A stretch of DNA of 64,000 nt, from NCBI RefSeq assembly GCF_051903065.1, contig NZ_CP178438.1; one strand, written 5' to 3'. The notes beneath the pieces were generated by a model. That model was not told the origin of the DNA, did not search any database, and saw only the letters and a list, made by a program, of their open reading frames with translations. Both the position numbers and the translations under genes were made by a program. Position 1 is the stretch's first letter. Every line of letters starts with the position of its first letter. Source of the stretch: Escherichia coli (GTDB taxonomy: Bacteria > Pseudomonadota > Gammaproteobacteria > Enterobacterales > Enterobacteriaceae). Positions 5,134 to 25,895 of the stretch are shown one piece after another.

Positions 5134-5580
5134 TTATTTGCCTTCGTGCGCGTGCTCATCTTCGCGGCAATCGCCTTCGGCACAGTGACCGTAAAGATAG
5201 AGACTGTGGTTAGTCAGGCGAATGCCATGTTTTGCGGCAATTTCACGCTGACGCGCTTCGATTGAATCATCACTAAATTCGATAACCTTGCCGCAGTCGA
5301 GGCAGATCAGGTGATCGTGGTGATGTTGCTGTGTCAGTTCAAATACGGATTTACCGCCTTCAAAATTGTGGCGGGTGACGATACCAGCGTCGTCAAACTG
5401 GTTCAGTACGCGATATACCGTAGCCAGACCAATTTCTTCACCCATATCGATCAGACGTTTGTATAAATCTTCCGCACTGACGTGATGGTTGTCCGGCTCC
5501 TGAAGAACTTCCAGGATTTTTAAACGTGGAAGCGTTACTTTCAGGCCAGCTTTCTTTAGGGCGGTATTGTTATCAGTCAT
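5134..5580 (-). CDS. fur: ferric uptake regulator
   Basis: 148-aa ORF, MTDNNTALKKAGLKVTLPRLKILEVL... with C-terminal His/Cys-rich metal-binding tail; matches Fur. Confidence 0.95.
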   Translation of the reverse strand: MTDNNTALKKAGLKVTLPRLKILEVLQEPDNHHVSAEDLYKRLIDMGEEIGLATVYRVLNQFDDAGIVTRHNFEGGKSVFELTQQHHHDHLICLDCGKVIEFSDDSIEARQREIAAKHGIRLTNHSLYLYGHCAEGDCREDEHAHEGK

Positions 5581-5659
5581 GCGGAATCTGTCCTGTTACT
5601 AAGCGGTTCACTTCATTAGAAGAAGTGACAGAATTTGCTCTTGAGATAATGCGTATCAT
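5573..5659 (-). CDS. uof: fur leader peptide (upstream-of-fur ORF), translationally coupled to fur
   Basis: 28-codon ORF (MIRIISRANSVTSSNEVNRLVTGQIPHD) ending 8 nt into fur; the uof leader is established knowledge for E. coli fur. Confidence 0.55.
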   Translation of the reverse strand: MIRIISRANSVTSSNEVNRLVTGQIPHD

Positions 5660-5868
5660 TATAGAATTGCCACGCCTAAATGAAAACCACAAGTCCCTGG
5701 CAAATATTGTTAATAAAAACGTGGCACAGCTTACATTTACAACGGCAAGGCCACTTGAACACCGGGACATTGTACAGGTACAACAGCAAAAGTTACAAAT
5801 TTGTAGCAATTATTTTGATTGGCATTATCTATTAATACGGCGTAGACATGAGTCTACGCCGCATCACA

Positions 5869-6399
5869 TCAGGCATTGAGAATTTCGTCGAGATGCAACT
5901 CTTCAGAAATCTGTTTAACCCATTTTTCTACACGTTCAGCGGTCAGTTCCGGCTGACGGTCTTCGTCGATAGCCAGACCGACAAAGTGGTCGTCATCTGC
6001 CAGACCTTTTGATGCTTCGAAATGATAGCCCGCAGTTGGCCAGTGACCAACGATGGTTGCACCGCGCGGTTCAATGATGTCGCGGATGGTGCCCAATGCG
6101 TCGCAGAAATATTCGGCGTAATCTTCCTGGTCACCACAACCAAACAGCGCAACCAGTTTGCCATTGAAATCAATCTCTTCGAGAGTCGGGAAGAAGTCAT
6201 CCCAGTCACACTGCGCTTCGCCGTAATACCAGGTTGGGATGCCCAGCAGCAGAATGTCATAAGCTTCCAGATCTTCTTTGCTGCTTTTTGCAATGTCATG
6301 GACATCGGCAACGTCTTTACCAAGCTGTTTTTGAATCATTTTTGCGATATTTTCGGTATTACCGGTGTCGCTGCCGAAAAAGATGCCAGTGATAGCCAT
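5869..6399 (-). CDS. fldA: flavodoxin 1
   Basis: 176-aa product from internal start [16 protein letters not shown] (flavodoxin FMN-binding loop); the six-frame ORF extends further upstream to 6516, but the flavodoxin start is at 6399. Confidence 0.9.
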
Positions 6400-6538: not shown

Positions 6539-6832
6539 TTAAACGATGCCCTGACTACGCAGCGCCGCCAGTTGCTGCATTAACATCTCTTCGATCAGTT
6601 CGCTACGGCTCATATTGCGCGATTCCGCCAGTTCGTTCAGCGCCTCGACAGCTTCCGCGTTCAGCTTCAGTTCGACACGCTTAAGGCCACGTACTTTGTC
6701 GCGTTTTAGTTGGTTGCGTTTATTAATACGCAGCTGTTCATCGCGCGAAAGCGGATTAGTTTTCGGTCGTCCCGGTCGACGCTCGTGCGCGAACAGATCT
6801 AATGTCGTACGGTCCGTTTGTTCTTTGGCCAT
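6539..6832 (-). CDS. ybfE: small LexA-regulated protein YbfE (CopG/ribbon-helix-helix-like)
   Basis: Conserved product [28 protein letters not shown]...; the track ORF starts further upstream at 6922, so the start is uncertain. Confidence 0.65.
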
Positions 6833-6971
6833 GATCTTGGTGACTTCGGGGGAAACAATCAGCCAGGCGCCTGCCCGGATGGATAGCGCGCCATAATACA
6901 ACAGCGAGAGGAGTCTCGCCAACGCCCACGCGCGGAAAGCGACGCGGACGCTGGGTTTTTAATCAGTTGCG

Positions 6972-7736
6972 TTAATCATTGAGATAGCGACGGATAGCGC
7001 GTAATACCGCATCTGGTTTTTCAGCATGGACCCAGTGACCCGCGCCTGCAATCACATGCGCCCGTGCCTGTGGAAATTGTGCCAGTAAATCATCACGGTA
7101 CTGCTCGCTAACATACGGAGAATTGCCGCCAGGGATAAACAGGGCAGGGTGATCCCATGCCGGGATTTTCTCCCAACCCACAATATGCGGATACTGATCC
7201 CACAATACCGGCACGTTAAAGCGCCACTCCCCGTCAACAAAAGATTTCAACAGAAACTGAATCACCCCTTCTTCATTAAGATGCTGGCGCATTATTGCTG
7301 CTGCTTGCTGGCGAGTTTGTGCGTCCGATTCACTGACCGCGTTGATAGCCGAGAAAATCTCATCATGACGGCGTACGTGATAGTCGACCGGTGCGATATC
7401 GATCGCCACCAGTTTATCGATGCGATCGGGGGCCAGTGCGGTAAGTGCCATTACCGCTTTACCGCCCATGGAGTGACCGATAAATGTTGCTTTGTCGATC
7501 TGCAGTGCATCCAGGGTATCAACAAGATCCTGCGCCATCGTCGGGTAATTCATTACCGGATCTCTCGGTGAAAGACCGTGGTTACGCATATCAACCTGGA
7601 TGATATTGTGATCGTTTACCAGATCGCGAGCCAGTACGCCAAGGTTGTCGAGGCTGCCAAACAGACCATGGACAAGAACGATGGGAGAATTATTGTGCTG
7701 GTTTTGTGCAGTTTGCGCGCGGATATTCAATTTCAT
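6972..7736 (-). CDS. ybfF: alpha/beta-hydrolase esterase YbfF
   Basis: 254-aa ORF with HGLFGS oxyanion region and GHSMGG nucleophile elbow. Confidence 0.85.
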   Translation of the reverse strand: MKLNIRAQTAQNQHNNSPIVLVHGLFGSLDNLGVLARDLVNDHNIIQVDMRNHGLSPRDPVMNYPTMAQDLVDTLDALQIDKATFIGHSMGGKAVMALTALAPDRIDKLVAIDIAPVDYHVRRHDEIFSAINAVSESDAQTRQQAAAIMRQHLNEEGVIQFLLKSFVDGEWRFNVPVLWDQYPHIVGWEKIPAWDHPALFIPGGNSPYVSEQYRDDLLAQFPQARAHVIAGAGHWVHAEKPDAVLRAIRRYLND

Positions 7737-7920
7737 GGCAAAGTTCTTTTTTTCGCGTTGTCGGGTTAGGGTATTATGTTGACCATTGTGCCACAGGGCT
7801 GCAACAAATAAGGTTTATTCCGAGTTTTTCTGCAAGCCAGGCTTGACGCTATCCGCTGCCGGGATTTATTCATATACTCTTGGCGACTTGTATTCAGCTA
7901 AGACACTGCACTGGATTAAG

Positions 7921-8466
7921 ATGAAAACGATTGAAGTTGATGATGAACTCTACAGCTATATTGCCAGCCACACTAAGCATATCGGCGAGAGCGCATCCGA
8001 CATTTTACGGCGTATGTTGAAATTTTCCGCCGCATCACAGCCTGCTGCTCCGGTGACGAAAGAGGTTCGCGTTGCGTCACCTGCTATCGTCGAAGCGAAG
8101 CCGGTCAAAACGATTAAAGACAAGGTTCGCGCAATGCGTGAACTTCTGCTTTCGGATGAATACGCAGAGCAAAAGCGAGCGGTCAATCGCTTTATGCTGC
8201 TGTTGTCTACACTATATTCTCTTGACGCCCAGGCGTTTGCCGAAGCAACGGAATCGTTGCACGGTCGTACACGCGTTTACTTTGCGGCAGATGAACAAAC
8301 GCTGCTGAAAAATGGTAATCAGACCAAGCCGAAACATGTGCCAGGCACGCCGTATTGGGTGATCACCAACACCAACACCGGCCGTAAATGCAGCATGATC
8401 GAACACATCATGCAGTCGATGCAATTCCCGGCGGAATTGATTGAGAAGGTTTGCGGAACTATCTAA
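7921..8466 (+). CDS. seqA: replication initiation negative regulator SeqA
   Basis: 181-aa product from internal ATG at 7921 ([33 protein letters not shown]...); the track ORF begins upstream at 7786. Confidence 0.9.
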
Positions 8467-18832: not shown

Positions 18833-21800
18833 ATGAGCGGAAAACCGGCGGCGCGTCAGGGCGACATGACGCAGTATGGCGGTAGCATTGTCCAGGGTTC
18901 AGCCGGGGTGCGCATCGGTGCCCCCACCGGCGTGGCCTGTTCGGTGTGCCCCGGCGGGGTGACGTCCGGCCATCCGGTCAATCCGCTGCTGGGTGCAAAG
19001 GTCCTTCCCGCTGAAACCGACATCGCCCTGCCCGCCCCGCTGCCGTTCATTCTCTCCCGCACCTACAGCAGTTACCGGACAAAAACGCCCGCGCCGGTGG
19101 GGAGCCTCGGCCCCGGCTGGAAAATGCCTGCGGATATCCGCTTACAGCTGCGCGATAACACACTGATACTCAGTGATAACGGCGGCAGAAGCCTGTATTT
19201 TGAGCACCTGTTTCCCGGTGAGGACGGTTACAGCCGCAGCGAGTCACTGTGGCTGGTGCGCGGCGGCGTGGCGAAACTGGATGAAGGTCACCGGCTGGCC
19301 GCACTCTGGCAGGCGCTGCCGGAAGAGCTTCGCCTGAGTCCGCATCGTTATCTGGCGACAAACAGTCCGCAGGGGCCGTGGTGGCTGCTCGGCTGGTGTG
19401 AGCGGGTGCCGGAAGCGGATGAGTTGCTGCCTGCGCCGCTGCCGCCGTACCGGGTACTGACCGGGCTGGTGGACCGCTTCGGGCGCACACAGACGTTCCA
19501 CCGCGAAGCCGCCGGTGAATTCAGCGGCGAAATCACCGGCGTGACGGATGGTGCCGGGCGTCACTTCCGGCTGGTACTGACCACGCAGGCGCAGCGGGCA
19601 GAAGAAGCCCGGCAGCAGGCCTCTTCCGGCGGGACGGAACCGTCCGCTTTTCCTGATACCCTGCCGGGTTACACCGAATATGGCCGGGACAACGGCATCC
19701 GTCTGTCTGCCGTGTGGCTGACGCACGACCCGGAATACCCGGACAACCTGCCAGCCGCGCCGCTGGTGCGCTATGGCTGGACGCCACGCGGCGAACTGGC
19801 GGCAGTGTATGACCGCAGCAATACACAGGTGCGCAGCTTTACTTACGATGATAAATACCGGGGCCGGATGGTGGCGCACCGTCACACGGGCCGACCGGAA
19901 ATCCGTTACCGTTACGACAGCGACGGGCGGGTGACAGAGCAGCTTAACCCGGCGGGCTTAAGCTACACCTACTGTTATGAGCAAAACCGCATCACCATCA
20001 CCGACAGCCTGGACCGCCGTGAAGTGCTGCACACGCAGGGCGAAGGCGGGCTGAAGCGGGTGGTGAAAAAGGAACACGCGGACGGCAGCGTCACGCAGAG
20101 TCAGTTTGATGCGGTGGGCAGGCTTAAGGCACAGACGGATGCCGCAGGCCGGACAACAGAATACAGCCCGGATGTGGTGACGGGACTCATCACGCGCATC
20201 ACCACACCGGATGGCAGGGCATCGGCATTTTACTATAACCACCACAGCCAGTTAACGTCAGCCACCGGGCCTGACGGGCTGGAATTGCGCCGGGAATATG
20301 ATGAATCCGGCCGTCTGATTCAGGAAACCGCCCCTGACGGCGATATCACCCGCTACCGTTATGATAATCCACACAGTGACTTACCCTGCGCAACGGACGA
20401 TGCCACCGGCAGCCGGAAAACCATGACGTGGAGCCGTTACGGCCAGTTGCTGAGCTTCACCGACTGTTCCGGTTATGTAACCCGTTATGACCATGACCGT
20501 TTCGGGCAGATGACGGCGGTGCACCGCGAGGAAGGGCTGAGTCAGTACCGCGCATACGACAGCCGTGGACAGTTAATTGCGGTGAAAGACATGCAGGGCC
20601 ATGAAATGCGGTATGAATACAACGCCGCCGGTGACCTGACCGCCGTCATTGCTCCGGACGGCAGCAGAAACGGGACACAGTACGATGCGTGGGGAAAGGC
20701 CATCCGTACCACGCAGGGCGGGCTGACGCGCAGTATGGAATACGATGCTGCCGGACGGGTCATCCGCCTGACCAGTGAAAACGGCAGCCATACCACCTTC
20801 CGTTACGATGTACTCGACCGGCTGATACAGGAAACCGGCTTTGACGGCCGCACACAGCGTTATCACCACGACCTGACCGGCAAACTTATCCGCAGCGAGG
20901 ATGAGGGGCTGGTCACCCACTGGCACTATGACGAAGCAGACCGCCTCACGCACCGCACCGTGAATGGCGAAACCGCAGAGCGGTGGCAGTATGACGAACG
21001 CGGCTGGCTGACAGACATCAGCCATATCAGCGAAGGGCACCGGGTGACGGTGCATTACGGGTATGATGAGAAAGGCCGGCTGACCGGTGAGCGTCAGACG
21101 GTGCATCACCCGCAGACGGAAGCACTGCTCTGGCAGCATGAGACCAGACACGCTTACAACGCGCAGGGACTGGCGAACCGCTGTATACCGGACAGCCTGC
21201 CCGCCGTGGAATGGCTGACCTACGGCAGCGGCTGGCTGTCAGGCATGAAGCTCGGCGACACACCGCTGGTGGATTTCACCCGCGACCGCCTGCACCGGGA
21301 AACGCTGCGCAGCTTCGGCCATTATGAACTCACCACCGCTTATACCCCTGCCGGGCAGTTACAGAGCCAGCACCTGAACAGCCTGCAGTATGACCGCGAT
21401 TACACCTGGAACGACAACGGCGAACTCATCCGCATCAGCAGCCCGCGCCATACCCGGAGTTACAGCTACAGCAACTCCGGCAGGCTGACCGGCGTTCACA
21501 CCACCACCTCAACTCTGGATATCCGCATCCCGTATGCCACGGACCCGGCAGGTAACCGCCTGCCCGACCCGGAGCTGCACCCGGACAGCACCCTCAGCAT
21601 GTGGCCGGATAACCGTATCGCCCGTGACGCGCACTATCTTTACCGGTATGACCGTCACGGCAGACTGACAGAGAAAACCGACCTCATCCCGGAAGGGGTT
21701 ATCCGCACGGATGATGAGCGCACCCACCGGTACCATTACGACAGTCAGCACCGGCTGGTGCACTACACGCGGACACAATATGCAGAGCCGCTGGTCGAAA

Positions 21801-23032
21801 GCCGCTATCTTTACGACCCGCTGGGCCGCAGGGTGGCAAAACGGGTATGGCGACGTGAACGGGACCTGACGGGCTGGATGTCGCTGTCACGGAAACCGCA
21901 AGTGACCTGGTACGGCTGGGATGGCGACCGCCTGACCACGATACAGAACGACAGAACCCGCATCCAGACGATTTATCAGCCGGGGAGCTTCACACCACTC
22001 ATCAGAGTTGAAACTGCCACCGGTGAACTGGCCAGAACGCAGCGCCGCAGCCTGGCGGATGCCCTTCAGCAGTCCGGCGGTGAAGACGGTGGCAGTGTGG
22101 TGTTCCCGCCGGTGCTGGTGCAGATGCTCGACCGGCTGGAAAGTGAAATCCTGGCTGACCGGGTGAGTGAGGAAAGTCGCCGCTGGCTGGCATCGTGCGG
22201 CCTGACGGTGGAGCAGATGCAAAACCAGATGGACCCGGTGTACACGCCGGCGCGAAAAATCCACCTGTACCACTGCGACCATCGCGGCCTGCCGCTGGCG
22301 CTTATCAGTGCGGAAGGGGCTACAGAATGGTGCGCAGAATACGATGAATGGGGCAACCTGCTGAATGAAGAGAACCCGCAACAGCTGCAGCAGCTCATCC
22401 GCCTGCCGGGTCAGCAGTATGATGAGGAGTCCGGCCTGTATTACAATCGCCACCGCTATTATGACCCGCTGCAGGGGAGGTATATCACTCAGGATCCGAT
22501 TGGGCTGAAGGGGGGATGGAATTTTTATCAGTATCCGTTGAATCCGGTTCAGTATATAGATTCAATGGGACTGGCATCAAAATATGGACACTTAAATAAT
22601 GGCGGATATGGAGCGAGACCCAACAAACCGCCTACGCCCGATCCAAGTAAATTGCCAGACATAGCGAAACAATTAAGACTGCCATATCCTATTGACCAGG
22701 CCAGTAGTGCGCCTAATGTTTTCAAAACATTCTTCAGAGCATTAAGCCCTTACGACTACACACTGTATTGCAGGAAGTGGGTAAAACCAAATCTGACTTG
22801 TACGCCACAGGATGATCCCCAGTATCCAGGGATGGATACAAAGACAGCAAGTGATTACCTGCCACAGACAAATTGGCCAACAACTCAATTACCACCAGGA
22901 TATACTTGTGCAGAACCCTATTTATTCCCAGACATTAATAAACCCGATGGGCCAGCAACAGCAGGGATAGATGATTTGGGTGAAATTTTAGCTAAAATGA
23001 AACAGAGAACATCGAGAGGAATAAGAAAATGA
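18833..23032 (+). CDS. rhsC: Rhs-family polymorphic toxin (rhsC-type): GC-rich YD-repeat core plus AT-rich variable C-terminal toxin domain
   Basis: 1399-aa ORF with many YD/RHS repeats (…YRYD…GR…), a core-end motif …[39 protein letters not shown], and a compositionally distinct tail; sits between ybfA and ybgA. Confidence 0.9.
22576..23032 (+). other. variable C-terminal toxin domain of the Rhs protein (about 150 aa, no recognisable catalytic motif)
   Basis: Begins just after the DPIGL…DSMGL core boundary; codon usage switches abruptly from GC-rich to AT-rich; Pro/Cys-containing sequence with no HNH/nuclease/deaminase motif that I can recognise. Confidence 0.6.
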
Positions 23033-23598
23033 AAAGAGTTTTGTTCTTTTTGCTGATGATATTTGTTAGTTTTGGTGTTATAGCTGATTGCGAAATACAA
23101 GCTAAAGATCATGATTGTTTTACTATTTTCGCTAAGGGTACTATTTTTTCCGCGTTTCCTGTCTTAAATAATAAAGCCATGTGGAAATGGTATCAGAATG
23201 AGGACATCGGTGAGTATTATTGGCAAACAGAACTGGGTACATGTAAAAATAATAAATTCACACCAAACGGGGCGAGACTCTTAATTCGCGTCGGGTCACT
23301 ACGCCTTAATGAAAATCATGCCATCAAAGGAACGTTGCAGGAGTTGATAAATACAGCAGAAAAAACGGCGTTTCTCGGCGATCGGTTTAGAAGTTATATA
23401 AGAGCGGGTATCTATCAAAAAAAGAGCAGTGATCCAGCTCAGTTGTTGGCAGTCCTTGATAATTCAATCATGGTTAAATATTTTAAAGATGAGAAGCCAA
23501 CTTATGCTCGAATGACAGCACATCTCCCGAACAAAGATGAGTCTTACGAATGTTTAACAAAAATACAGCATGAACTGCTTCGTAGTGAAGAAAAATAA
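23029..23598 (+). CDS. putative cognate Rhs immunity protein with N-terminal signal-peptide-like segment
   Basis: 189-aa AT-rich ORF whose ATG overlaps the rhs stop (ATGA at 23029-23032); N-terminus [19 protein letters not shown] looks like a Sec signal peptide; same size as K-12 ybfC as I recall it, but identity not verified. Confidence 0.6.
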
Positions 23599-23766: not shown

Positions 23767-24069
23767 ATGAGAAACTCACTAATATTACTTATTATGATAT
23801 TGTTTACAATATCACACTCAGTATTTGGAAAAGAAAATCCAGTGGAAATTTTAGTAAATAGTTGTGAAATGGCTTTGGAATTATCATATGTTTACATTAA
23901 ATATGTATACGGGAAAGAAAAAGCAGAATTTCAGAAACCATATAGTATTACAGATGACAATAATTGTTGGAAAATCGAGGGAAAACAACCGAAGACTTTA
24001 GGAGGAAATTTTACAATACTAATAGCGAAAAAAGATGGGCAAGTGTTGAATGTAATACACACGAAATAA
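23767..24069 (+). CDS. putative orphan immunity protein (small, signal-peptide-bearing)
   Basis: 100-aa AT-rich ORF, N-terminus MRNSLILLIMILFTISHSVFG is signal-peptide-like; directly follows the toxin remnant. Confidence 0.45.
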   Translation: MRNSLILLIMILFTISHSVFGKENPVEILVNSCEMALELSYVYIKYVYGKEKAEFQKPYSITDDNNCWKIEGKQPKTLGGNFTILIAKKDGQVLNVIHTK

Positions 24070-24489: not shown

Positions 24490-25625
24490 ATGGAACTTAA
24501 AAAATTGATGGAACATATTTCTATTATCCCTGATTACAGACAAGCCTGGAAAGTGGAGCATAAATTATCGGATATTCTACTGTTGACTATTTGTGCCGTT
24601 ATTTCTGGTGCAGAAGGCTGGGAAGATATAGAGGATTTTGGGGGAACACATCTCGATTTTTTGAAGCAATATGGTGATTTTGAAAATGGTATTCCTGTCC
24701 ACGATACCATTGCCAGAGTTGTATCCTGTATCAGTCCTGCAAAATTTCACGAGTGCTTTATTAACTGGATGCGTGACTGCCATTCTTCAAATGATAAAGA
24801 CGTCATTGCAATTGATGGAAAAACACTCCGGCATTCTTATGACAAGAGTCGCCGCAGGGGAGCGATTCATGTCATTAGTGCGTTCTCAACAATGCACAGT
24901 CTGGTCATCGGACAGATCAAGACAGATGAGAAATCTAATGAGATCACAGCTATCCCTGAACTTCTTAACATGCTGGATATTAAAGGAAAAATTATCACAA
25001 CTGATGCGATTGGTTGCCAGAAAGATATCGCAGAGAAGATACAAAAACAGGGCGGTGATTATTTATTCGCTGTAAAAGGAAATCAGGGGCGGCTTAATAA
25101 AGCCTTTGAGGAAAAATTTCCACTGAAAGAATTAAATAATCCAGAGCATGACAGTTACGCAATGAGTGAAAGAGTCACGGCAGAGAAGAGATCCGTCTTC
25201 ATAATGTTTGCGATGTCCCTGATGAACTTATTGATTTCACGTTTGAATGGAAAGGGCTGAAGAAATTATGCGTGGCAGTCTCCTTTCGGTCCATAATAGC
25301 AGAACAAAAGAAAGAGCCAGAAATGACGGTCAGATATTATATCAGTTCTGCTGATTTAACCGCAGAGAAGTTCGCCACAGCAATCCGAAACCACTGGCAC
25401 GTGGAGAATAAGCTGCACTGGCGTCTGGACGTGGTAATGAATGAAGACGACTGCAAAATAAGAAGAGGAAATGCAGCAGAATTATTTTCAGGGATACGGC
25501 ACATTGCTATTAATATTTTGACGAATGATAAGGTATTCAAGGCAGGGTTAAGACGTAAGATGCGAAAAGCAGCCATGGACAGAAACTATCTGGCGTCAGT
25601 CCTTGCGGGGAGCGGGCTTTCGTAA
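24490..25625 (+). pseudogene. ISAs1-family (H-repeat-associated) transposase, disrupted by a frameshift between 25260 and 25272
   Basis: Two adjacent ORFs (24490-25260, 256 aa, frame 1; 25272-25625, 117 aa, frame 3) that together total about 378 aa, the size of an H-repeat/ISAs1 transposase (N-terminus [51 protein letters not shown]); similar to K-12 ybfD/ybfL as I recall them. Confidence 0.75.
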
Positions 25626-25637
25626 TCTTGCCCTGGA

Positions 25638-25895
25638 ATGCTGACAGATAAGAATGATTGTGCCAGAATTGAAGCTATAAGCGGACTGGCAGAAAGAAAA
25701 GATAATCGTGTTATAACTGCTATAATTTATGAACTGCAAAAAAACATAATTTTTGATGAAGTTATTATTTTGGCAGGTATTTTAGGTGATATTAAACTAC
25801 ATCCTATTCAAAAAAATATATTAAATGAATTTAATGATGAGGATGTCATTGGCAATATAAAGTCAGCAATACAACAAATTATAAAATATAATTGA
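25638..25895 (+). CDS. hypothetical protein fragment with HEAT/PBS-lyase-like repeat pattern
   Basis: 85-aa AT-rich ORF immediately after the H-repeat element; repeat-like …ARIEAISGLAERKDNRVITAIIYEL… pattern; likely a remnant. Confidence 0.3.
   Translation: MLTDKNDCARIEAISGLAERKDNRVITAIIYELQKNIIFDEVIILAGILGDIKLHPIQKNILNEFNDEDVIGNIKSAIQQIIKYN

Follow-up and report, generated by a model that had tools for sequence, protein, structure and literature searches.

A probable Rhs toxin tip and its candidate periplasmic immunity protein, YbfC, at the rhsC locus of Escherichia coli

It is probable, to judge from sequence comparison, that the Rhs protein described here is a polymorphic toxin whose site of action is the periplasm of the target cell, and that the small gene overlapping its 3' end, ybfC, encodes the cognate immunity protein. 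Both genes lie in the window, the whole 64,000-nt stretch of E. coli DNA that was analyzed, which represents the kdp-ybfA-rhsC locus, with kdpFAB and ybfA upstream and ISAs1, ybgA and phr downstream. The tip and the downstream ORF are the module annotated in E. coli K-12 as ybfO/ybfC, and hence not newly found; RefSeq labels the Rhs ORF "RHS element core protein" and its neighbor "protein YbfC" (the genome is identical across the 1401 nt compared). The preliminary description had pointed to an uncharacterized toxin/immunity pair. This stands insofar as neither member matches a known toxin or immunity family and the function is unassigned, but the pair itself was already annotated in K-12.

The Rhs protein and its C-terminal tip

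The Rhs ORF (18833..23032, plus strand, stop codon included) encodes a full-length protein of 1399 residues, made up of a YD-repeat shell and a variable tip. Toward the N-terminus lies a DUF6531 domain (residues 46–123; 18968..19201, plus strand; Pfam E = 3.7e-17), and RHS_repeat is matched several times (best E = 1.7e-07); both fall inside the N-terminal 500 residues, and Pfam also returns a faint TEN_YD-shell match. Upstream of DUF6531 there is a short PAAR-like fragment (residues 2–20), where the Pfam PAAR_motif match spans 19 residues at model positions 51–69 of 70, with E = 0.24. Near the other end of the protein is the RHS core domain, PF03527 (residues 1143–1179; 22259..22369, plus strand; Pfam E = 1.1e-14), followed by the core-end motif DPIGL-(x21)-DSMGL (residues 1221–1247; 22493..22573, plus strand), read from the sequence with both aspartates present. 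A motif of the PxxxxDPxGL type after the RHS core domain is the mark of the start of a variable tip, and in characterized Rhs proteins the tip is cut off at this core-end motif by aspartyl autoproteolysis. The second motif, DSMGL, has S in place of P, and tip homologs have DPIGL...DPxGL at the equivalent place. Around the core end the ORF reads from the motif straight into the tip.

The boundary is also seen in base composition. GC content in 300-nt windows is 0.58–0.69 over the core (18900–22500) and 0.43–0.35 from 22500 on, and the low values (about 40%, compared with about 60% in the core) continue through the ORF downstream of Rhs. Both the 1399-residue ORF and the abrupt drop in GC right after DPIGL...DSMGL, as first described, are thus borne out. 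The tip was also rightly recognized, but its region had been placed from 22576, two bases off the frame; A1248, its first residue, begins at nt 22574. Of the hallmarks of an Rhs polymorphic toxin, the sequence shows the repeats, the core domain with its motif, a tip of foreign composition and a coupled small gene downstream.

The tip is 152 residues long, from A1248 to residue 1399. Its first part (residues 1248–1283; 22574..22681, plus strand) is a Pro-rich, poorly conserved linker that varies and contains gaps where distant homologs are aligned, and it has an AF2 pLDDT below 50. The remainder (residues 1284–1399; 22682..23029, plus strand) is the conserved core of the putative toxin, in which alignment A4 shows an invariant series of S, P, Y, C, W, C, D, P, G, C, A and D; its C-terminus is basic (..RK). 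Its three cysteines, C1313, C1323 and C1359, are invariant down to 33–40% identity. The core has no His and no hydrophobic segment, and it is hydrophilic (GRAVY −0.69). The AF2 model consists of a helix, three strands and a helix, with a pLDDT of about 80 at tip positions 61–120 only, and is poor overall (pLDDT 55).

What kind of toxin might this be? No relationship could be detected between the tip and any characterized toxin, including the Pfam Tox/Ntox families, Tae, Tge, Tle, nucleases, deaminases and ADP-ribosyltransferases. Pfam gave no significant match for the tip, for YbfC or for the alignment of distant tip homologs (a match of one tip member to Defensin_RK-1, at E = 0.056, was dismissed as chance), and nothing significant was found for either protein in NCBIfam, PADLOC or PHROGs. 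Searches of PDB sequences, with single sequences and with a profile, returned only chance matches at E ~1, such as a MAP kinase, and Foldseek against AFDB50 returned only uncharacterized relatives. The fold model of the tip found no specific structural match, a null result that carries little weight because the model is so poor. Across Pfam, NCBIfam, PADLOC, PHROGs, PDB and the fold models, the poor one of the tip included, there was thus no significant profile or structure match of the tip or YbfC to a characterized toxin or Imm family. The tip had been described as having no recognizable toxin motif, and the searches agree. Profile searches and structure prediction of the tip and of the 189-residue ORF, both proposed in the preliminary description, likewise yielded no significant match to a characterized toxin or immunity family and no specific fold match, with the pLDDT of 55 applying to the tip.

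Several identities were considered for the tip and rejected. Papain-like, NlpC/P60, CHAP and L,D-transpeptidase enzymes need a Cys-His pair, and the tip has no conserved His. The sequence C111-A-E113 of the tip resembles the C/HxE motif of deaminases, but E113 is not conserved and PCxxC is absent. The colicin-M-like motif is likewise absent, and a pore-former or glycine zipper does not agree with a hydrophilic tip whose maximum 19-residue hydropathy is 0.14. More generally, the tip core contains none of the catalytic motifs of known amidase, muramidase, lipase or pore-forming effectors. In the literature, the search for functional work on ybfC or ybfO (b0703, b0704) found none. The accessible supplements of a 2026 Salmonella effector catalog contain no matching sequence strings, and the tip may yet appear in that catalog under an "STox" number; in the available text of the Levy-lab screen, the nine "PT" toxins include no Rhs-only enterobacterial periplasmic toxin.

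YbfC and the compartment of action

The predicted cognate immunity gene, ybfC (23029..23598, plus strand, stop codon included; RefSeq "protein YbfC"), encodes 189 residues. Its ATG (23029–23031) overlaps the TGA of the Rhs ORF (23030–23032) in the sequence ATGA, and a Shine-Dalgarno-like GAGAGG (23014–23019, plus strand) lies within the 3' end of the Rhs ORF, 9 nt before the ATG. The overlap through which the two genes had been taken to be translationally coupled is therefore there, at 23029–23032. A scan for promoters and terminators gave no enrichment over shuffled sequences.

The first 19 residues of YbfC (23029..23085, plus strand), MKR followed by a 16-residue uncharged stretch, are predicted to be a Sec signal peptide, cut between A19 and D20. 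The call is rule-based, and rests on an n-region, a hydrophobic core, a cleavage region and small residues at −3 and −1, a layout that is conserved: all 38 of the homologs compared have one or two basic residues and then a short hydrophobic core. In most of them this core has 10–13 uncharged residues, often closed by Asp, and is followed by a small-x-small (AxA-type) site; the homologs have no further hydrophobic segment and no lipobox. A core of 10–13 uncharged residues is too short for a membrane anchor. The N-terminus, first noted as Sec-signal-like, thus looks like a cleavable signal peptide and not like an anchor, the alternative that the preliminary description had left standing. YbfC is almost certainly exported to the periplasm, in so far as its sequence is a guide. 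Existing labels, which are annotation only, run in the same direction: one YbfC relative is named "Periplasmic protein" in UniProt, and ybfC is a "putative secreted protein" in a transcriptome paper.

The cysteines tell a similar story. Mature YbfC (170 residues; 23086..23595, plus strand) is modeled by AF2 as a beta-sandwich (pLDDT 76.7, pTM 0.74), for which no specific structural match was found, and has four cysteines, C21, C30, C72 and C175. C30 and C175 occur in all 38 homologs; of these, 26 also contain C21 together with C72, 11 lack the two, and one is split or ambiguous. Pairs that are conserved, or gained and lost together, show the behavior expected of two disulfides, and the YbfC pairs behave like disulfides in this sense. 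Disulfides form only outside the cytoplasm.

Immunity proteins reside in the compartment where their toxin acts. Since YbfC is almost certainly exported, the toxin probably attacks the cell envelope. The same reasoning applies to the peptidoglycan amidases, muramidases and lipases of the Tae/Tai, Tge/Tgi and Tle/Tli systems, where the immunity protein carries an export signal, implying an envelope target. The suggestion that a periplasmic immunity protein would imply an envelope-targeting toxin is in this way supported by the layout of the signal peptide and by the cysteine pairs of YbfC.

The tip could instead act in the cytoplasm, for instance as a small metal-binding enzyme built around its three Cys and Asp, with YbfC as an immunity protein held in the inner membrane by an uncleaved N-terminal segment. 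The uncharged stretch of the E. coli YbfC allele, at 16 residues, is by itself borderline between signal peptide and anchor; three cysteines and an invariant Asp could form a metal site of a kind suited to a reducing compartment; and PAAR-Rhs effectors usually carry cytoplasm-acting toxins, according to a 2026 survey (PMC12994826). However, most YbfC homologs have the shorter, Asp-ended core and the AxA-type site, the cysteine pairs behave as disulfides, and no signature of a nuclease, deaminase, ADP-ribosyltransferase or other cytoplasmic toxin was found. Even an N-in anchor would leave the body of YbfC in the periplasm. A cytoplasmic site of action is thus quite unlikely, and a periplasmic one is preferred. 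Such a toxin had been called atypical for Rhs tips. The tendency holds (PMC12994826), but the case would not be unique: in K-12 the tip of the main RhsC is followed by YbfB, which looks like a multi-pass membrane protein, and at the Phytobacter locus an orphan glycine-rich tip is followed by a lipoprotein-type gene.

The tip and ybfC as a pair

Relatives of the tip are rare. Among 1.84 billion representatives searched exhaustively there were only 27, all but one weak match at Rhs C-termini, in Enterobacteriaceae and Burkholderiales. Downstream DNA was read at six divergent loci (E. coli, Phytobacter, Acidovorax, Paracidovorax, Comamonas and one metagenome), and in all six a YbfC homolog with an overlapping start directly follows the tip. 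The identities of tip and YbfC co-vary (r = 0.89 over five pairs), and both genes are under purifying selection relative to their Phytobacter orthologs, with dN/dS of 0.31 for the tip and 0.10 for ybfC. Within E. coli, tip and ybfC co-occur as single copies in 3536 and 3553 of 5426 genomes (about 65% of complete genomes); in 3244 genomes the DNA of the tip shows at least 99% identity, and the most common YbfC cluster shares 96% identity with the YbfC of the window. A search of plasmids returned only mis-labeled chromosomal pieces. Taken as a sequence pattern, this supports the view that ybfC behaves as the cognate immunity gene of the tip.

The loci of tip homologs hold further orphan tip/immunity modules, and vgrG, DUF2169 and PAAR-like genes adjoin a distant tip homolog at one metagenomic locus.

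The lack of any toxin motif in the tip would also be expected if tip and YbfC were a pair of secreted proteins with some other role, such as adhesion or signaling, that came to lie at the end of an Rhs gene by chance. This is very improbable. The C-terminus of an Rhs protein after the autoprotease motif is the defining position of polymorphic toxin domains, and it is directly after this motif that the tip relatives are found, the one weak match apart; a tightly coupled small gene lies downstream of the tip in every locus read; and the loci also hold the additional orphan modules and, in the metagenomic case, the vgrG, DUF2169 and PAAR-like genes.

Proposed mode of action and deployment

If the pair is a toxin and its immunity protein, the YD-repeat shell of the 1399-residue protein would enclose its own C-terminal 152 residues, which would be released by a cut at the aspartyl autoprotease site, DPIGL...DSMGL|A, as in characterized Rhs proteins. 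Delivery into a neighboring Gram-negative cell, most likely by a T6SS, has to be assumed because the N-terminus is not a demonstrable PAAR domain. Indeed, delivery is uncertain, since the PAAR match cannot be verified at its E value and no vgrG, eagR or other T6SS gene is found beside the Rhs/ybfC locus. In the oxidizing periplasm the tip would fold, probably with a disulfide from the DsbA of the target, and then damage a component of the envelope. Its activity possibly requires disulfide bonds, given the conserved cysteines. The best guesses at how it would do so are tight binding to an envelope target that lies in or faces the periplasm, or an unrecognized Asp-based hydrolysis of a cell-wall precursor or polymer. 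YbfC, made from the translationally coupled gene, would be exported through Sec and cleaved after A19 by signal peptidase I. Stabilized by two disulfides, C21–C72 and C30–C175, it would neutralize the incoming tip by direct binding in the periplasm.

The closest working analogy is found in Serratia marcescens, whose effectors Ssp2 and Ssp4 act in the periplasm, have three Cys each and are active only after oxidation by the DsbA of the target; they are synthesized in the cytoplasm, have no signal peptide and are neutralized by the periplasmic immunity proteins Rap2a and Sip4 (PMC5792426). Neither Ssp2/Rap2a (a Tae4 amidase and its immunity protein) nor Ssp4/Sip4 has any sequence or fold relationship to the tip or YbfC. 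Moreover, Ssp2 has a Cys-His catalytic pair, whereas the tip has no conserved His, and Ssp2 and Ssp4 are free cargo effectors, whereas the present tip is the C-terminus of an Rhs protein. In a more specific and rather unlikely version, the tip would be a non-enzymatic toxin of a new fold, active only once the Dsb system of the target has oxidized it in the periplasm, and would kill by binding an essential envelope protein stoichiometrically, or by forming a mixed disulfide with it through an unpaired third Cys. If so, it would be the first of a new class of envelope poisons delivered by Rhs proteins.

The usual picture of Rhs shells is that of carriers for enzymes that act in the cytoplasm. 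If the periplasmic reading is true, these shells would be shown to deliver envelope-directed cargo as well, and a function would be assigned to ybfC and ybfO, long-standing orphan genes of the best-studied bacterium. Confirmation would also establish a new antibacterial effector family, with a toxin domain that has no Pfam model or structure and very few relatives. Being small, His-free and non-hydrophobic, such a periplasmic toxin may hint at an envelope target, or a chemistry, that known effectors do not exploit.

Is the toxin in use? In K-12 the same tip and downstream gene are found at the same locus, between kdp-ybfA and ybgA-phr, but the tip is carried on a 5'-truncated orphan fragment, the pseudogene ybfO, behind the main rhsC-ybfB pair, and ybfC is intact; this orphan module would have kept the immunity without the weapon. 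In the window, on the other hand, the tip ends a full-length Rhs protein, and the rhsC-type tip and ybfB are absent. The weapon is therefore potentially live here. The tip might nevertheless be a defensive relic, seldom or never deployed, with ybfC retained as an orphan immunity gene that guards against strains in which the tip is deployed, and the full-length fusion in the window an incidental recombinant. The K-12 pseudogene beside an intact ybfC fits with this, as does the absence of T6SS genes from the locus. In a spread sample of E. coli, moreover, 9 of the 11 full-coverage rows were annotated as short fragments ("RHS repeat-associated core domain") and two as full-length ("RHS element core protein"); since most copies in this sample carry the short annotation, as in K-12, the tip may rarely be deployed. 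Even so, the frame is intact over 1399 residues here, as is the core-end motif, the tip is under purifying selection between genera and nearly identical in those 3244 E. coli genomes, and Phytobacter and Acidovorax carry it on full-length Rhs proteins. A relic is unlikely on this evidence and, as it concerns use and not mechanism, would be compatible with a periplasm-acting toxin. The difference between K-12 and the window suggests that some strains are armed and others only immune, a difference with consequences for how E. coli strains compete in the gut.

In Salmonella Typhimurium, an orphan Rhs toxin is activated by recombination that places the orphan tip on the full-length gene. As in the C-terminal displacement of rhs loci, a main gene and downstream orphan tip/immunity modules have core sequence in common, and the arrangements in K-12 and the window differ just as they would after such an event, which could be the gain of a new main tip in K-12 or its loss in the window. 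The available text of a study of Salmonella Typhimurium describes selection for the expression of an orphan Rhs toxin (PMC3967940). The orphan toxins of that species are cytoplasm-acting, unlike the one proposed here.

A putative effector/immunity pair of EHEC EDL933, RhsC/RhsCI (z0847–z0851 / z0853), is probably the same as tip/YbfC. It is left without an assigned function in the available text of an in-silico T6SS survey, which makes no mention there of a signal peptide on RhsCI and gives weak threading matches only (VipE, TM-score 0.57) (PMC7216683). As in the window, the EHEC RhsC is a full-length protein at the rhsC locus without a convincing domain match, as far as that text describes it (PMC7216683).

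A candidate toxin domain and its partner gene

The Rhs ORF of 1399 aa (18833..23032, + strand), with DUF6531, RHS repeats and an RHS core domain in Pfam, ends in a tip formed by residues 1248-1399 (nt 22574-23029, + strand, in the reading frame of the Rhs ORF). The abrupt drop in GC content at the tip noted in the preliminary description is borne out: the core has a GC content of 0.58-0.69, which falls from ~22500 to 0.43-0.35 and stays low through ybfC. The tip itself also stands, but its proposed start at 22576 lies two bases out of frame and is corrected to 22574. As described earlier, the tip is followed by an overlapping 189-aa ORF, ybfC (23029..23598, + strand), whose ATG shares the sequence ATGA (23029-23032) with the Rhs TGA; the sequence also reads GAGAGG 9 nt 5' of the ybfC ATG.

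What kind of toxin might this be? The earlier view that the tip has no recognisable toxin motif was upheld by every collection searched. Neither the tip nor YbfC matched Pfam, even at E <= 10 (the sole match, Defensin_RK-1 at E = 0.056, came from one member of the distant tip homologue alignment and is non-significant). Nothing significant was returned for either by NCBIfam, PADLOC or PHROGs, and PDB sequences gave only chance-level matches with single-sequence and profile queries. YbfC was modelled as a beta-sandwich (pLDDT 77, pTM 0.74) whose matches in AFDB were uncharacterised relatives only, one of them a Salmonella entry named 'Periplasmic protein'.

Within the tip, ~35 residues form a variable, Pro-rich linker and ~115 the core. 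Counting S1249 as 1, the invariant residues of the tip are S57, P58, Y61, C65, W68, C75, D93, P106, G108, C111, A129 and D133, while Y59, D60, Y64, P96, P114, F117 and a basic C-terminus are nearly invariant. The homologue alignment has no conserved His, which argues against Cys-His amidases and transpeptidases, and no invariant Glu, which argues against Glu-dependent muramidases. The tip is hydrophilic (GRAVY -0.82) and has no segment able to cross a membrane, arguing against helical or glycine-zipper pore formers; lipases, too, are disfavoured by these sequence features.

HMMER, run exhaustively with the tip profile against 1.84 billion cluster representatives, yielded 27 proteins at E <= 0.001, including a probably spurious 2084-aa protein (E = 5e-4). 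Those retrieved are fragments of Rhs proteins, with the domain placed immediately after DPIGL...DPxGL. Named sources are Escherichia, Salmonella and Phytobacter for the tip, and Escherichia, Salmonella, Citrobacter, Kluyvera and Pseudocitrobacter for YbfC; relatives with 33-43% identity occur in the Burkholderiales (Acidovorax, Paracidovorax, Comamonas, Delftia and Ralstonia). Two short contigs assigned to metagenome-assembled genomes of 'Candidatus Nanosynbacter sp.' and 'Flavobacterium psychrophilum' encode the tip at 98-99% identity to E. coli; they almost certainly derive from E. coli, through contamination or mis-binning.

In all six loci whose downstream DNA was read (E. coli, Phytobacter, Acidovorax, Paracidovorax, Comamonas and one metagenome), the gene 3' of the tip gene codes for a YbfC homologue and has an overlapping start; the metagenomic locus also has vgrG, DUF2169 and PAAR-like genes. 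The identities of toxin and immunity protein rise and fall together (Pearson r = 0.89 for five pairs, giving 10 non-independent comparisons), with the immunity protein diverging faster than the toxin in the same pairs. For E. coli against Phytobacter, dN/dS comes to 0.31 (tip) and 0.10 (ybfC). Such properties are those of a cognate toxin/immunity pair. Comamonas sp. BIGb0152 has a second YbfC paralogue after the cognate immunity gene (positions 5404-5976 of that locus), an extra orphan immunity copy without its own toxin gene.

The proposal of an uncharacterised toxin/immunity pair is supported. The tip and YbfC represent uncharacterised families, one of toxin domains and one of immunity proteins, inside the well-known Rhs polymorphic toxin scheme, already annotated as ybfO/ybfC and never explained. 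A literature search found no functional study of either: ybfC is a 'putative secreted protein' in a transcriptome table of Shiga-toxin-producing E. coli, and was mutated, as an unannotated gene, in an evolution experiment. An in-silico EHEC survey names RhsC/RhsCI, a candidate equivalent, as a putative pair without convincing similarity (PMC7216683). The covered parts of the Salmonella effector catalogue supplements contain no string matching the tip, and the domain may already be in that catalogue under an 'STox' number.

Probable export of YbfC and the likely site of action

All 38 YbfC homologues compared have one or two basic residues at the start and then a hydrophobic core, which in most comprises only 10-13 uncharged residues and is often closed by Asp (for example MKR, then LFFFISAIFISF, then DAIA-TCE). 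A small-x-small site separates this core from the conserved mature N-terminus, and the 38 sequences have no further hydrophobic segment and no lipobox. The E. coli allele, with 16 uncharged residues, is ambiguous if taken alone. Across the family, the predicted layout is that of a cleavable Sec signal peptide and not of a membrane anchor, in agreement with the Sec-signal-like start proposed earlier.

The mature protein has four cysteines. C30 and C175 are present in 38/38 sequences, while C21 and C72 occur together in 26 (many of them close relatives), are both missing from 11 and are split in one, a case that looks like a product of misalignment within the signal peptide. In the non-enterobacterial sequences only, four have both, 11 have neither and one is ambiguous. 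Such paired gain and loss is expected from two predicted disulfides, C21-C72 and C30-C175, and disulfides form outside the cytoplasm. Together, the signal-peptide layout and the cysteine pattern make it very probable that YbfC is periplasmic.

Immunity proteins are located where their toxin acts (PMC5792426), which makes the periplasm the most likely place of action for the tip, and the earlier suggestion that an exported immunity protein implies an envelope-targeting toxin gains support. With its three invariant cysteines and cytoplasmic synthesis, the tip recalls the Serratia effectors Ssp2 and Ssp4, which have three cysteines each and become toxic only once oxidised by the target's DsbA (PMC5792426). 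In the working model, the tip would be freed from the Rhs shell by autoproteolysis, delivered into the target periplasm and folded oxidatively there. It might then target a component of the envelope, through binding or through Asp-based chemistry of an unrecognised kind, and in kin cells secreted YbfC would bind and neutralise it. The delivery step is uncertain: the Rhs N-terminus has only a 19-residue PAAR-like fragment (a weak Pfam match, E = 0.24), and no T6SS genes are adjacent to the tip/ybfC locus in the annotated neighbourhood on a chromosome identical over 1.4 kb.

The pair is probably directed at the envelope. Is that atypical for Rhs, as had been claimed? As a tendency, yes: according to a 2026 survey, the usual fusion partners of PAAR-Rhs modules are cytoplasm-acting toxins (PMC12994826). 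It is not a unique case, however, given K-12 RhsC/YbfB and an orphan tip in Phytobacter. YbfB, encoded after the main rhsC tip in K-12 (6777-7103 of that locus), has 108 aa and several hydrophobic segments; it looks like a multi-pass membrane protein, and the K-12 RhsC tip, too, may therefore be directed at the membrane. Envelope-type immunity seems common at the rhsC locus. In Phytobacter ursingii (7110-8286 of that locus), an orphan Rhs fragment directly 3' of the YbfC homologue has a glycine-rich, zipper-like tip (…GLDVGLSAYGIAGGSVAAGILTG…GGGIGVAGGASLSG…), and the 145-aa ORF after it has a lipoprotein-type signal (…LVGC|DDK); these look like a membrane-active toxin and a lipoprotein immunity protein.

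Armed and orphan arrangements of the locus

The 1.4-kb stretch compared matches several complete E. coli chromosomes at 100% identity, one of which has the gene order kdpB-kdpA-kdpF, ybfA, 'RHS element core protein', 'protein YbfC', 'NTF2 fold immunity protein', a frameshifted ISAs1 transposase, ybgA and phrB. In K-12 MG1655, the equivalent locus reads rhsC, ybfB, pseudogene ybfO, ybfC, then ybfQ, ybfL and ybfD. [quoted passage not shown]

Tip DNA (coverage >=80%) was found in 3536 and ybfC in 3553 of 5426 complete E. coli genomes, each essentially in single copy. In an evenly spaced sample of tip matches (a rough sample, no census), 9/11 full-coverage rows were annotated as short Rhs fragments and 2/11 as full-length core proteins, so the armed arrangement seen in the window looks like the rarer one. 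In 3244 genomes, the DNA of the tip has 99% identity or more with the window, whereas ybfC reaches at least 99% in only 553 and 95-99% in 3042; the window's ybfC is thus a minority allele beside a near-invariant toxin.

Downstream of ybfC, a 100-aa ORF (23767-24069, + strand) with a hydrophobic, signal-like N-terminus (MRNSLILLIMILFTISHSVFG) matches Pfam Imm-NTF2-2 (NTF2 fold immunity protein; E = 2.7e-20). Only ~170 nt, without a toxin fragment, separate it from ybfC, and it is therefore an orphan immunity gene; the matching K-12 interval has no annotated gene. Two further ORFs of 256 and 117 aa (24490-25625, + strand) correspond to an ISAs1 (H-repeat) transposase split by a frameshift. Next comes an 85-aa ORF (25638-25895, + strand) that matches only the last 82 of 285 positions of the 'putative lyase' model PRK09687 (E = 3e-24); it looks like the end of a yibA-like HEAT-repeat gene, of the kind located after rhsA, and is probably a remnant of another Rhs immunity module.
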